DNA of 64,000 nucleotides from Nitrospirota bacterium (GCA_016207885.1 JACQZE010000003.1:421117-485116); one strand, 5' to 3'. Positions 5,790-18,806 are shown, counted from the first letter of the stretch. Translations and numbers: made by a program. The notes: generated by a model not told the origin, from the sequence alone.

Positions 5790-5833
5790 ATTCAAGCCCA
5801 AACGTCTTCCCTTTAAAATCAGTGTGTTGCAAA

Positions 5834-5850
5834 CTGGCATACTTTTAGCA
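5834..5850 (+). promoter_or_regulatory. sigma-54 (-24/-12) promoter of nifH
   Basis: cTGGCATactttTAGCAt has a GG-N10-GC spacing matching TGGCAC-N5-TTGCA. It is 70 nt upstream of the nifH ATG. Confidence 0.6.
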
Positions 5851-5919
5851 TTATTCAGGGTACGAAGTATAACAGCAAGCTTCAGAAAAACACCAATACA
5901 AATAAAAAGGAGAAGAAAG

Positions 5920-6762
5920 ATGAGACAGATTGCGATTTATGGAAAAGGCGGGATAGGCAAATCAACTACAACACAGAACCTGGTCGCGGCTCTTGCCGAG
6001 GCAGGCCGCAAATGCATGATCATAGGCTGTGACCCGAAGGCGGACTCCACGCGGCTTATTCTCAACCGCAAGGCACAGAACACTGTCATGGACATGGCTC
6101 GCGAAAAGGGTACGGTGGAAGATCTCGAACTTGAAGAGGTGCTGCTGCACGGGTTCAAGGGCATCAAGTGCGCCGAGTCCGGCGGGCCTGAACCGGGCGT
6201 GGGCTGCGCGGGCCGGGGCGTTATCACAGCCATAAATTTTCTCGAAGAGAACGGCGCGTACGGCGATGACACGGAATTTGTTTTCTACGACGTTCTCGGC
6301 GACGTTGTCTGCGGCGGGTTTGCCATGCCGATCAGAGAAGGCAAGGCGAAGGAGATATACATAGTGACCTCAGGAGAGATGATGGCTATGTACGCCGCAA
6401 ACAATATTTCACGCGGAGTTCTCAAGTATGCGCAGAGCGGCGGCGTGCGGCTTGGCGGCCTTATCTGCAACAGCAGAAAGACGGATAAAGAGTTCGAGCT
6501 TATCTCGGAGCTGGCTGCGAAGCTCGGCACACAGATGATCCATTTTGTGCCGAGAGACAATGAGGTCCAGCGCGCCGAGCTCAGGAAAAAGACTGTGATA
6601 GATTATGCCCCTGACCACCCGCAGGCAGACGAGTACCGTGAGCTGGCCCGGAAGATCGCGGACAACAAGAACTTCGTTATTCCCACGCCGATCACCATGG
6701 ACGAATTAGAGAGGCTCTTGATGGATTTCGGCATCATGGAGAGCGAAGAGGCAGCAGCGTAA
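5920..6762 (+). CDS. nifH: nitrogenase iron protein
   Basis: [17 protein letters not shown]...[12 protein letters not shown]...[10 protein letters not shown] is unambiguous NifH. The start was trimmed to the ATG at 5920, preceded by AAAGGAG. Confidence 0.95.
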
Positions 6763-6829
6763 AAGAAGCGTTCAGCGGTCAGCACTCAGAAATGAACCGC
6801 TTTTACTGATAGCTATAAAGGAGGAAACA

Positions 6830-8257
6830 TTGAGCACAGCGATTAAAGATACACAAAAGATGATAGAGGAAGTCCTTGATGCATATCCGGAGAAATCAAA
6901 GAAGGACCGGGCAAAGCATCTCGCGGCGAACGATCCCTCGGGACAGTGCACCACTTGCCAGGTGAAGTCCAATGTTAAATCACGTCCCGGCGTCATGACC
7001 GTGCGCGGCTGTGCCTATGCAGGCGCCAAGGGCGTTGTATGGGGGCCGGTGAAAGACCAGTTAACGATCAGCCACGGCCCGGTCGGATGCGGCCAGTACT
7101 CATGGTGGTCGCGGCGCAACTACTATAACGGACAGACCGGCATCGATACCTTCGGCACCATGCATATCACCACAGACTTTCAGGAAAAGAATATCGTTTA
7201 CGGCGGCGACAAAGGCCTTGACCTTGCACTGCATGAACTCAAGGGGCTCTTCCCGCTTGCAAACGGGATCGGCATACTTTCCGAATGTCCGGTCGGCCTT
7301 ATCGGAGACGATATCGAGGCTGTGTCAAAGCGTGTGGAAAAGGAATTTAAATATCCGATCGTTCCGGTGCGGTGCGAGGGTTTCAGGGGAGTGAGCCAGT
7401 CCCTCGGCCATCATATCGCAAACGATACCATCAAGGATTATGTGCTTGGCAAGGGCAAGCTTGAAACCTCAACGCCCTATGATGTAGCCCTCATCGGGGA
7501 CTATAACATCGGCGGCGACGCATGGGCCTCGCGCAAAATTCTCGAAGAGATGGGCCTTCGCGTGATCTCGCAGTACACGGGAGATGCAACGATCAACGAG
7601 ATCGGCATCGCGACCAAGGCGAAGCTGAACCTGATCCACTGTTACCGGTCAATGAACTACATCTGCCGGCACATGGAGGAGGAGTACGGCATTCCCTGGA
7701 TGGAGTTTAATTTCTTCGGCCCTACAAAGACCTATGACAGCATCAGGAAGATTGCGGCGAAGTTCGACGAAACGATACAGCAGAAGGCGGAAGCGGTCAT
7801 CGCAAAGTACAAGCCGGTCATGGACAAGATCATTGAACAGTACAGGGCAAAGCTCGAAGGCAAGAAGGTGATGCTCTACGTTGGCGGCCTTCGTCCGCGC
7901 CACACTATCGGCGCTTACGAGGACCTCGGCATGGAAGTGGTTGCTTCAGGATACGAGTTCGGCCACAGCGACGATTATAAGCGCACCTATCCTGAGATGA
8001 AGGAAGGGGCTGTGATCATGGATGACGCTACTTTATATGAACTGGAAGAGTTCACTCGCAGGCTGAAGCCGGACATGGTCGGCTCGGGAATCAAGGAAAA
8101 ATATTCTTACCACAAACTCGGAGTGCCGTTCCGGCAGATGCATTCATGGGACTATTCCGGCCCCTACCACGGCTTTGACGGCTTCCCGGTATTTGCTCGT
8201 GACATGGACATGACGGTAAACAGCCCCACATGGGATTTGATACGGAGGAAAAGATGA
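6830..8257 (+). CDS. nifD: nitrogenase MoFe protein alpha chain
   Basis: TTG start after AAAGGAGGA. Hallmark segments include ...[19 protein letters not shown]...[18 protein letters not shown]... The stop overlaps the nifK start (ATGA). Confidence 0.92.
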
Positions 8258-17146: not shown

Positions 17147-17164
17147 CTGGCATGCTTTTAGCAT
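17147..17164 (+). promoter_or_regulatory. sigma-54 promoter nearly identical to the nifH promoter
   Basis: cTGGCATgctttTAGCAt versus nifH cTGGCATactttTAGCAt. The -12 GC lies about 15 nt before the annotated ATG. Confidence 0.55.
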
Positions 17165-17176
17165 AATAGATAAGTT

Positions 17177-18667
17177 ATGAATCCGCTTTCCAGTCAGGAA
17201 CTTTATCATGAGATCTTCGGCTCTATCCTTGATAGAACCGAAATGACCCCTTATTTATTGCTGCAGGCAACAAATTATGAGGCCGCCCTGAGACAGGCAA
17301 CCAGGATGATGGGCAACCGCGGTTTTGATACGTCAGACAGCAATGAGCTGAATGAAAGCGAGAAAAAAAGGGCGCAGCAATATATAGAGCAGGCCTATTG
17401 TTACTGTTTTGATTTTATGTTCCCGTTTTTAAAAGAACAGCTTGAAGGGCTCAAGGCTTTAAATACCAAAAATCAGTATCTGTACACTAACTCTTTGCAG
17501 GTCATAGATGAAATAGCGGCTATATTGCTTGATCCGGAGTTTAAAGAAATAGTTGCCGAAGACCCGCGGCATCTCTTTCTTCTGGCATCATCAAAAAAGT
17601 ATCCTCACGTCTTCTACGGCTACAAGGGGCTAAATATGCATGTTCCGCCCGGCTGGCAGCGCATGGCATGTTCGATCCTGAAAGTGGCGCATCTGATCAA
17701 GTCAATCGAGGAGGAGAGCCAGGATGTTAACGACTTCGCCCAGTTGGGCTTGTTCTTTGAAAGTAAGGGGCAGAGCCTTCACGACATATTTAATTATGAC
17801 TGGGAGAACCCCGGAGAACTTCCGGAAAGCGAGGCAGCTCAAAGGGCATTCGTAAAGATCTCTGCTTTTTTTCATAAACTGAAAGAATTTGTTCAATATA
17901 ATACTGAACAAAAGCGCCTGATCTTCAATAGCGGAGACGGGGTTGAAGTCGATATCGTTGAGATAAAGGCAAGGCTGAAGAGCCCGGAAAGCATGTTTAC
18001 CAAGCTGGGCAAGAATCTTGAGGGAGAGGCCTACAATATCAGAGACCTTCTGGCGATCACCTTTATACTGAAGAACAAGGATGATACTTTAAAACTCTTT
18101 CATGCGCTGCAGAAACGGGGCGTTATACTTCAGGAAAATACGATCTCACAGTCCATAACCCAGACATTATTTGATATGCCTGAAGATATGACAGACGCGG
18201 TAGGAAGCCTCATGGCATCTCTCTCTATGAGCAAAGGGAAAGATGAGCCGGATGACAAGGATGAGGTTTTGGTTAACGCAAACAATTTTTATAATGCCCT
18301 CGGGGTCAATACTGCCAATAACCCTTATTCTTCATTGGGCCATAAGAAATTCCAGTGCAAGATAAACTTCTTTGTGCCCATTCACCGGATAGCCGGAACA
18401 GGCAAGATCATTATTCCCGGCACTGCTGAATATAAAATGAGGGACCGGCTTAATTTAAAAACGGAACAGCATACACTTGCGTTAGAGCTTCGCATATCAG
18501 ACGAGAAAAGCTGGCAACGGTCGGAATACAGCGGAGAGTCTCATCACAATGCCTATAAATTCCGTCAGTTGATCTCTGTAATGAACAGGGTATTCAAAAA
18601 TATCTTTAATCTGCCGGAGAAGTCTTTTTCCCAGGTCAGAAGCGACCAGGATATACTCTTCTCATAA
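17177..18667 (+). CDS. RelA/SpoT-like nucleotidyltransferase-domain protein (possible small alarmone synthetase-like) with unknown N-terminal domain
   Basis: The C-terminal half carries an RxKxxxSxxxK motif (ARLKSPESMFTKLGKN), D-containing IRDLLAITFIL, and an ExQxR-like ALELRISDEKSWQRSE...SHHNAYKF segment. Their order matches the NT_RelA_SpoT fold. 496 aa. The start may be an internal Met. Confidence 0.55.
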   Translation: MNPLSSQELYHEIFGSILDRTEMTPYLLLQATNYEAALRQATRMMGNRGFDTSDSNELNESEKKRAQQYIEQAYCYCFDFMFPFLKEQLEGLKALNTKNQYLYTNSLQVIDEIAAILLDPEFKEIVAEDPRHLFLLASSKKYPHVFYGYKGLNMHVPPGWQRMACSILKVAHLIKSIEEESQDVNDFAQLGLFFESKGQSLHDIFNYDWENPGELPESEAAQRAFVKISAFFHKLKEFVQYNTEQKRLIFNSGDGVEVDIVEIKARLKSPESMFTKLGKNLEGEAYNIRDLLAITFILKNKDDTLKLFHALQKRGVILQENTISQSITQTLFDMPEDMTDAVGSLMASLSMSKGKDEPDDKDEVLVNANNFYNALGVNTANNPYSSLGHKKFQCKINFFVPIHRIAGTGKIIIPGTAEYKMRDRLNLKTEQHTLALELRISDEKSWQRSEYSGESHHNAYKFRQLISVMNRVFKNIFNLPEKSFSQVRSDQDILFS

Positions 18668-18778
18668 CATTTTAACTTTCCCTACCAAATTGTCATATAC
18701 CTTCTTTTTTTGTCAGTAAAGATACTTTATTGTAGCTTTAACGCCATAATGTTTCCTTTAAAATCAAAGTGTTATAAA

Positions 18779-18796
18779 CTGGCACGCTTCTCGCAA
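18779..18796 (+). promoter_or_regulatory. sigma-54 promoter (TGGCAC-N5-TCGCA)
   Basis: aCTGGCACgcttcTCGCAa is a strong -24/-12 match. It shares an extended upstream block (CCTTTAAAATCA..GTGTT..AAACTGGCA) with the nifH promoter. Confidence 0.6.
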
Positions 18797-18806
18797 TAAG
18801 CTACGT

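Follow-up and report, generated by a model that had tools for sequence, protein, structure and literature searches.

A putative promoter-proximal IHF-type element in fixed register with sigma-54 promoters of a nitrogen-metabolism region in Nitrospirota

RESULTS

Genes and promoters of the locus

The DNA analyzed here is a 64,000-nt stretch (the window) from a Nitrospirota bacterium (GCA_016207885.1 JACQZE010000003.1:421117-485116), a metagenome-assembled genome (MAG) of the Thermodesulfovibrionia, with exact protein matches in NCBI (MBI4825240/41). The region is a nitrogen-metabolism neighborhood in which three sigma-54 promoters, named P1, P2 and P3, share a conserved block upstream of their -24/-12 elements; a fourth, degenerate copy was found at P4. 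As argued below, this block is probably a binding site of the integration host factor (IHF) type, which would bend the DNA next to the promoter.

A PilZ gene (5193-5639) precedes P1, which is followed by nifH (ATG at 5920, with an AGGAG ribosome-binding site 5' of it), nifD, nifK, a fused nifEN, nifX and two PII-like nifI genes, and then by a ferredoxin gene, nifB, a MoeB/ThiF-like gene and nifV (ending at 17069). P2 lies between nifV and the gene of a 496-aa TIGR04552-like protein (17177-18667), after which P3 precedes a 63-aa HTH_8 gene (18807-18998), a porin-like open reading frame (ORF), amt and a PII gene. Distal to this first amt/PII pair are a second PII gene (21634) and a second amt (21978), with P4 5' of both, followed by a glutamine amidotransferase gene and glnA. 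Two of the gene names given in the initial annotation, nifH for the gene of P1 and HTH/amt operon for that of P3, are correct. For its part, the RelA/SpoT-like label of the P2 gene is weak, since the RelA_SpoT match (E = 0.0026) reached 18.5 bits versus a cutoff of 27. A Pfam search with the 496-aa protein returned zero matches at threshold, and the protein is a sub-threshold relative of TIGR04552/TIGR04562. It is highly conserved, with 63 to 76% identity across its Nitrospirota and Methylococcaceae homologues.

Sigma-54 promoters were defined by GG and GC 10 nt apart in TGGCAC-N5-TTGCW, an intergenic position and a gene downstream on the same strand. P1, P2 and P3 have all of these features, their cores score 9 to 11 out of 12, and they are the sole strong intergenic matches in this region; P4 fails at the -12 element, where it has GA. 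Start sites were placed from the standard GG(-24)/GC(-12) geometry, and positions are numbered with the T of TGGCA as -26. The 13-bp IHF consensus used throughout is WATCARNNNNTTR (PMC2709558, PMC3897727, PMC7962754). The features of the four promoters are as follows.

5740-5749, plus strand: third unit of P1, ACA-W4-TGT with one mismatch
5760-5769 and 5780-5789, plus strand: putative upstream activator sites of P1, two exact ACA-W4-TGT units with centers at -96.5 and -76.5
5809-5834, plus strand: P1 block (nifH), weight matrix score 20.9, 5' flank CCCTTTAA; CAAAC flanks the -24 element
5817-5829 (-44 to -32), plus strand: IHF-type core of P1, AATCAGTGTGTTG, exact match to WATCARNNNNTTR
5835-5850, plus strand: sigma-54 core of P1, TGGCATACTTTTAGCA, predicted start at about 5861
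17084-17103, plus strand: putative activator site of P2, palindrome CTACAATTAcaTAATTGTAG with the exact unit ACATAATTGT at 17092-17101, center at -77.5
17122-17147, plus strand: P2 block (TIGR04552-like 496-aa gene), apparently a diverged copy
17130-17142, plus strand: core equivalent of P2, ATGCAAAGGGTTT, with C, A and TT kept and three mismatches to the IHF consensus
17148-17163, plus strand: sigma-54 core of P2, TGGCATGCTTTTAGCA, predicted start at about 17174, ATG at 17177, leader of about 3 nt
18684-18693, plus strand: distal unit of P3, ACCAAATTGT, one mismatch, center at -117.5
18724-18733, plus strand: proximal unit of P3, ACTTTATTGT(AG), one mismatch, center at -77.5
18754-18779, plus strand: P3 block (HTH_8/porin/amt/PII operon), weight matrix score 31.2, the top of the window
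18762-18774, plus strand: IHF-type core of P3, AATCAAAGTGTTA, exact consensus match
18780-18795, plus strand: sigma-54 core of P3, TGGCACGCTTCTCGCA, predicted start at about 18806, ATG at 18807
21487-21496 (ACATTTTTGT) and 21504-21513 (ACAAAAATGT), plus strand: putative activator sites of P4, two exact units, conserved in the related locus L001
21533-21558, plus strand: degenerate P4 block, CCCATTAACAATAAAGAGTTTTAAGC, 16 to 18 of 26 positions shared with P1 to P3
21559-21574, plus strand: sigma-54-like core of P4, TGGTACGCTTCTTGAT, with a noncanonical -12 element (GA, not the near-invariant GC)

From these positions, the HTH_8 mRNA made from P3 is predicted to be leaderless and that made from P2 near-leaderless, both lacking a Shine-Dalgarno sequence. 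The same start/ATG geometry as in P3 was found in L001, and several orthologues have short leaders.

The block in the window

The three strings on which the initial annotation was based are all present in the window, at 5809-5840 (CCCTTTAAAATCAGTGTGTTGCAAACTGGCAT), 17122-17153 (CCTTTTAAATGCAAAGGGTTTGATCCTGGCAT) and 18754-18785 ((T)CCTTTAAAATCAAAGTGTTATAAACTGGCAC), with a sigma-54 core 3' of each (TGGCAT-N5-TAGCA in P1 and P2 and TGGCAC-N5-TCGCA in P3). In an ungapped alignment anchored on TGGCA, in which the 26 nt 5' of this motif were compared, P1 and P3 were identical at 21/26 positions (P ~ 4e-8), P2 and P3 at 17/26 (P ~ 9e-5) and P1 and P2 at 16/26 (P ~ 4e-4), and the block stood in a single fixed register relative to TGGCA in all three. 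A degenerate pattern made of the block plus TGGCA is expected 0.01 times per shuffled window. When a weight matrix built only from the promoters of relatives, with TGGCA left out, was run over the whole window, P3 ranked first (31.2) and P1 second (20.9), the maxima of 100 random windows having a mean of 13.6 and a highest value of 23.0. P2 scored less than 8.1, and its block reads as a diverged copy. Thus, the proposed conservation beyond the -24/-12 elements in the three promoters was borne out by the 26-nt identities, and also by the relatives described below.

The P4 block, absent from the initial list, shares 16 to 18 of the 26 positions with P1 to P3, and the sequence of its promoter core is identical in L001. 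P4 would be a sigma-54 promoter that is weak or atypical, or else one in decay. The block was also considered as a dyad operator, and this was rejected: a CCTTT..AAAGG symmetry is present in P2 and partly in P3 and is missing in P1 and in the relatives.

Conservation in relatives

A total of 80 genome loci were gathered through homologues of the TIGR04552-like protein, most of which, including all those of Methylococcaceae, have no sigma-54 promoter upstream. A nitrogen-type sigma-54 promoter before this gene was found in a small clade only (the window, L001 and L009). A sigma-54 scan of 82 loci was then carried out blind to the block, with inspection of the ORFs downstream. The block was recovered before nifH in L003 and, with a +1 offset, in L030; before the small HTH_8 gene in L001, L008, L009, L010, L012, L063 and L067; before amt in L008 (-1 offset); and before the TIGR04552-like gene in L001 and, with a +1 offset, in L009. 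Conservation in the orthologous promoters of relatives, on which the initial annotation had made its proposal depend, was therefore observed.

In 12 same-register promoters from the window, L001, L003, L008 to L012, L063 and L067, the information content was maximal (2.0 bits) at -45, -41, -40, -34 and -33 and amounted to 1.0 to 1.6 bits over -54 to -46 and at -27. The spacer from -70 to -55 gave 0.0 to 0.7 bits.

L001 is the nearest relative found, with a TIGR04552-like protein 93% identical to that of the window, and it lacks the whole nif cluster (5641-17194 of the window against 9629-10030 of L001). This indicates that a putative 11.5-kb nif island, carrying P1 and P2, was gained or lost. 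The TIGR04552-like and HTH_8 genes of L001 are each preceded by the upstream activator sequence (UAS), the block and the promoter, with the register unchanged. At P2 the DNA of L001 does not align with that of the window, and for this reason the block there appears to have been maintained, not simply inherited. As to the junctions, L001 has a small zinc-ribbon ORF in place of the nif cluster, and homology with the window restarts about 20 nt inside the TIGR04552-like gene.

The block at promoters outside nitrogen metabolism

A metagenome collection was scanned with CTTTAA-N3-CAR-N4-TTR-N4-CTGGCAY-N7-GC, which yielded 68 loci, 47 of them distinct once near-identical sequences were removed; having been selected with the block in the query, these matches show its recurrence at real promoters, not its frequency. 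Nearly all were intergenic, just 5' of a gene start, and their G+C content ranged from 37 to 66%. Two positions that the query left free were still conserved, namely, the C before CTTTAA and the T before the -12 GC. The genes downstream included nitrogen-type ones (small HTH_8, nifH, nifV-like, glutamate synthase [GOGAT]-type amidotransferase and amt) and others (pspA, pilins, Usp-like genes, small glycine-zipper membrane proteins and TonB-type receptors), and one group corresponded to Pantoea agglomerans sfnG.

At the Usp-like genes of L111, L114, L125, L140 and L144, the sequence TGTTCATATT-N2-AAAC was present about 33 nt 5' of the block, and a gene for an enhancer-binding protein adjoins the Usp-like locus in L140 and L144. 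These loci look like a separate sigma-54 regulon with the same proximal IHF-type module.

Match to the IHF consensus and position of the core

The invariant C-41, A-40, T-34 and T-33 of the 12 aligned promoters correspond to C, A and TT in WATCARNNNNTTR, and the match to this consensus is exact in P1 (5817-5829) and P3 (18762-18774). A/T-rich DNA lies 5' of the core: in P1 and P3, TTTAAAA immediately precedes TCA, and the 32 non-nitrogen metagenome promoters likewise have an A-rich tract 5' of CC. The core, at -44 to -32, is placed between the putative activator sites, whose proximal unit is at -76.5/-77.5 in P1 to P3, and the -24/-12 elements.

The register was examined in 1.34 Mb of DNA whose selection had not involved the block. 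There, CTTTAA-N3-CAR-N4-TTR occurred 10 times, in six cases exactly 5 nt from TGGNA-N8-GC, and the WWTCAR-N4-TTR cores preceding a sigma-54 motif had gaps of 5 (seven cases), 6 (two cases), 9 and 13 nt. A relative, the Nitrospirae MAG L015, encodes an IHF-alpha equivalog (NF001401, 131.9 against a cutoff of 111), so that the lineage probably has IHF.

A nitrogen-specific motif upstream of the block

A palindrome of 10 to 14 bp, (CT)ACA-W4-TGT(AG), was found in one to three copies 5' of the nitrogen-related promoters. The window contains six exact ACA-W4-TGT sequences, compared with 0.8 expected, and five of the six lie in the upstream regions of P1, P2 and P4; P3 has one-mismatch units only. 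The center of the proximal unit is at -76.5 or -77.5 in P1, P2 and P3. In the nonredundant metagenome set, ACA-W4-TGT or ATTGTA words were present within 60 nt 5' of the block at 14 of the 15 nitrogen-related promoters and at 1 of the 32 others, and the non-nitrogen promoters carry different palindromes of their own. We infer that the ACA-W4-TGT units are activator sites. A gene for a NifA equivalog (580.7 against a cutoff of 528.85; GAF, AAA+ and HTH_8 domains) is located directly 5' of UAS, block and promoter in L115, and it is probably a NifA-type activator that binds these units. No gene for an enhancer-binding protein or activator was found in the 64-kb window.

The canonical NifA UAS, TGT-N10-ACA, usually more than 80 bp upstream, was tried as a candidate and rejected. 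It is absent from P2 and P3, occurring only in P1 (5767-5782) and in the nifH promoter of L003, and in P1 it arises incidentally from two ACA-W4-TGT units spaced by 20 bp. The spacing between units in relatives varies (N7, N8, N10 and N12).

The 63-aa stand-alone HTH_8 protein, copies of whose gene lie at 18807-18998 in the window, 11638-11859 in L001 and 3170-3296 in L115, had the C-terminal DNA-binding helix-turn-helix of NifA as its best NCBIfam match (E = 6e-10). In many Thermodesulfovibrionia it is encoded by the first gene of the porin/amt/PII operon, and its recognition helix, GITERMIGYKIKKY, is nearly equal to that of the adjoining NifA equivalog in L115 (GITPRQMGYKIKKY). This small protein may compete with NifA or assist it at the ACA-W4-TGT units.

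Comparison with known systems

In Escherichia coli, where pspG is IHF dependent, similar cores were located solely by consensus matching. The pspG promoter has an exact core (AATCAATAGATTA) with a gap of 4 nt to TGGCA, and hycA has CTCTTTAATAACAATAAATTAAAAGT-TGGCAC with a gap of 5 nt and 16/26 agreement with the block consensus. At pspA there is a one-mismatch core with a gap of 6 nt (19/26 with a 1-nt shift) and a second, exact core with a gap of 21 nt. IHF dependence has been reported for psp/pspA (PMC3709507) and for hyc (PMC2636881). As in the window, the cores of the three E. coli promoters are oriented WATCAR...TTR towards the promoter, the gaps being 5, 4 and 6 nt at hycA, pspG and pspA, respectively, versus 5 nt here, and the 5' flanks are similar (CTCTTTAATAACAA at hycA, TCTTTATAAATCAA at pspA and TCCTTTAAAATCAA here). 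The E. coli systems differ in belonging to Gammaproteobacteria and in their activators, FhlA and PspF, and pspA differs further in having two candidate cores (gaps of 6 and 21 nt), either of which could be that of IHF. E. coli glnHp2 was not recovered by a simple sigma-54 filter and was not used.

The orp2 promoter of Desulfovibrio vulgaris has a functional IHF site at -43, the activator DVU2106 at -88 and sigma-54 at -11, with IHF dependence and site mutagenesis shown experimentally (PMC3897727). It shares with the promoters studied here a compact layout, with the activator at about -80 to -90 and the IHF core at about -43/-44, followed by the -24/-12 elements. The regulon and the activator are different, the orp2 core (AATCAAACATCTT) is a poorer match to the consensus than those of P1 and P3, and no fixed-register family was described there. 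The IHF-like site had initially been regarded as unusually close to the -24 element; with the E. coli pspG, hycA and pspA cores 4, 5 and 6 nt from TGGCA and the orp2 site at -43, this description does not hold.

The nif promoters of Klebsiella pneumoniae have a NifA/IHF/sigma-54 architecture (Hoover et al. 1990, cited in PMC2709558), and the layout predicted here resembles it in that nifH has a sigma-54 promoter and that IHF would bend the DNA between this promoter and the sites of a NifA-type activator. Two differences are apparent: the classical enhancer-promoter distance is 100 to 140 bp (PMC2709558), whereas the center of the proximal UAS is at -77 here, and the classical UAS is TGT-N10-ACA, in contrast to the recurrent ACA-W4-TGT of the window.

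A site that abuts the -24 element in a fixed register would also suit a recruitment role, as in the Pu promoter of Pseudomonas putida. There, IHF and an UP-like element assist the recruitment of the sigma-54 polymerase, beyond the forming of a loop. The IHF site of Pu is farther upstream, at about -50 to -80, with the UP-like element beyond it, and in this it differs from the core at -44 to -32 described here. The Pu case is mentioned in the discussion of PMC3897727.

Other features of the region

The nifE and nifN genes form a single 894-aa ORF (fused region, 9877-12561), and the PII-like nifI pair (13119-13849) is located 3' of nifX, not between nifH and nifD. Downstream of the HTH_8 gene, the porin-like gene is divided between two frames (ATG at 19072, stop at about 19245; ORF at 19247-19777), while the porin of relatives is intact, as a single 275- to 292-aa TorF-family ORF (11888-12715 in L001 and 12672-13550 in L009); the split gene (19072-19777) reflects a frameshift, a pseudogene or an assembly error. 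A GC-rich hairpin is present just 5' of it (19031-19048). A near-perfect palindrome, TGTCAAC-TTATA-GCTGACA, lies at 24169-24187, 20 to 40 nt 5' of the glnA start, and is kept in L001 (about 17124-17142); no sigma-54 promoter was found before glnA, and the palindrome may be the operator of a different nitrogen regulator. An Rfam search of 5000-25000 gave zero RNA family matches, and scans for sigma-70 promoters and terminators around P2 and P3 gave nothing above chance.

DISCUSSION

The block is likely to be a promoter-proximal IHF-type bending site beside the sigma-54 promoter, and a generic module. The initial annotation had suggested a common architectural or regulatory input for the three transcription units. 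Its architectural half is the best reading of the data, since the block is conserved in relatives and its invariant positions are those of the IHF core; its regulatory half, as an input of nitrogen control, did not withstand the finding of the block at pspA, pilin, Usp-like and sfnG promoters. The regulon-specific signal lies instead in the separate ACA-W4-TGT units, which had gone unmentioned. In kind, the element would most likely be an ordinary, textbook part of sigma-54 promoters, in this instance within the compact layout of a Nitrospirota nitrogen regulon.

Several observations, besides the way in which the metagenome matches were selected, weigh against the assignment to IHF. The resemblance to an IHF site proposed initially stands for P1 and P3, in which WATCARNNNNTTR is matched exactly, and is weak for P2, in which 3 of the 9 specified positions are wrong; the L001 orthologue of the P2 core is closer to the consensus (ATTCAGCGGGTTA). 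P4 has four mismatches. The conserved CC/CTTT, that is, the YCCTTTAA flank, is outside the canonical 13-bp consensus, and no ihf gene was found within the 64-kb window. Moreover, 10 exact copies of WATCARNNNNTTR occur in the window, compared with 7.0 +/- 2.2 expected; because exact matches are not enriched window-wide, a consensus match alone is weak evidence. The argument for a putative IHF site stands on position and conservation.

One other explanation takes the block for an operator to which a nitrogen-specific factor binds in place of IHF, be it the 63-aa HTH_8 protein, a protein resembling the DNA-binding domain of NifA, or some other repressor or coactivator, and which would act as one regulatory input for all units. 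The blind set of relatives would agree with it, as the full block was present there solely at nitrogen-related promoters (nifH, HTH/amt, amt and TIGR04552-like) and four other sigma-54 promoters in the set lacked it, and the small HTH_8 gene, whose product best matches the NifA C terminus, comes first in the amt operon of many relatives. The wider comparison led us to discard this candidate, given the same-register block at pspA, pilin, Usp-like, Pantoea sfnG and other genes in DNA of very different G+C content and the similar block at E. coli hycA and pspG. In addition, the block lacks the dyad symmetry expected of an HTH_8 target, as these domains normally bind as dimers to palindromes; a separate palindromic nitrogen motif, ACA-W4-TGT, exists; and the likeness of the HTH_8 recognition helix to that of the L115 NifA points to the UAS, not the block, as its target. 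We consider such an operator very unlikely. Even less credible is that the similarity merely reflects descent, without function past the -24/-12 elements, the promoters having lately arisen by copying, for instance with P1 brought in by the nif island and P3 and P4 duplicated with amt-PII. Although P1 and P3 are identical at 21 of 26 positions, the P3 and P4 cores are nearly identical (TGGCACGCTTCTCGCA and TGGTACGCTTCTTGAT) and the window has the nif cluster as an 11.5-kb insertion when compared with L001, neither the DNA between UAS and block nor that 3' of the -12 element is conserved among P1, P2 and P3, and at P2 the window and L001 both keep the register of UAS, block and promoter despite being unalignable there. 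The block also persists in relatives with just 63 to 70% identity to the window in the TIGR04552-like protein, and it occurs in unrelated regulons and phyla, a conservation pattern that largely refutes this explanation.

A somewhat less improbable alternative, although still an unlikely one, dispenses with a dedicated bending protein: the block would be an A/T tract with intrinsic curvature or flexibility, or an UP-like element for the C-terminal domains of the alpha subunits (alpha-CTD) of the sigma-54 holoenzyme, and would stabilize the closed complex at a set distance from the -24 element. This arrangement is compatible with IHF. The fixed 5-nt gap to TGGCA suggests direct contact with the polymerase, TTTAAAA occupies the expected position of an alpha-CTD site, an intrinsic bend has been proposed for CCCTTTT in E. 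coli glnAp2 (PMC2709558), and the YCCTTTAA flank is conserved outside the IHF core. The invariant columns, by contrast, are C, A and TT at the spacing of an IHF core and not a continuous A/T tract, and the same sequences are present in E. coli promoters, with reported IHF dependence in the cases of pspA and hyc. The A/T-rich UP-element consensus, AAAWWTWTTTT..AAAA, lies immediately 5' of the element contacted by sigma; TTTAAAA is rightly placed, yet the invariant columns are again C, A and TT.

Under the IHF interpretation, the block would be a composite of a WATCAR-N4-TTR core (-44 to -32), a YCCTTTAA flank (-52 to -45) and a flank of the -24 element (RAAC before TGGCAY). An IHF heterodimer bound to the core would impose a U-turn centered near -44, taking the first consensus base as the center of the site by convention (PMC2709558), and would thereby fold the activator sites (proximal unit at -77) back to the sigma-54 holoenzyme at about -12. 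With the bend center at -44 and the UAS center at -77, 33 bp upstream, the mirror point is at about -11; since this falls at the -12 region, the U-turn would set the activator over sigma-54. A NifA-type enhancer-binding protein would then contact sigma-54 over a very short loop. The block itself would serve as a generic architectural module of many sigma-54 regulons in several phyla, and it is the upstream ACA-W4-TGT units that would place nifH, the TIGR04552-like gene, the HTH/amt operon and probably the second PII/amt unit under nitrogen control.

A further proposal, which we advance only as a speculative one, is that of a class of fixed-register, proximal-IHF sigma-54 promoters, YCCTTTAAWWTCAR-N4-TTR-N5-TGGCAY, extending from Proteobacteria to Nitrospirota, with IHF docked on the holoenzyme and an additional layer of HTH_8 feedback. 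If this were true, IHF would recruit or position the holoenzyme besides looping the DNA, so that short enhancer distances, such as that of an activator at -77, would be possible, and a leaderless protein consisting only of a NifA DNA-binding domain, encoded by the first gene of the amt operon, could act against or alongside NifA at the ACA-W4-TGT units and provide feedback on the nitrogen regulon.

More generally, strong conservation of an additional block at sigma-54 promoters does not imply that it is a regulon-specific operator, and the occurrence of one register across phyla, with the core 4 to 6 nt from TGGCA, makes a modest, testable point on the arrangement of IHF and the sigma-54 polymerase. 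For the uncultured Thermodesulfovibrionia, the analysis suggests a promoter grammar in which ACA-W4-TGT activator units centered at about -77, -97 and -117 precede an IHF-type bend (-44) and the -24/-12 elements. This grammar would allow the nitrogen regulon to be predicted in MAGs, and it assigns to that regulon the 496-aa TIGR04552-like protein and the small NifA-like HTH protein.

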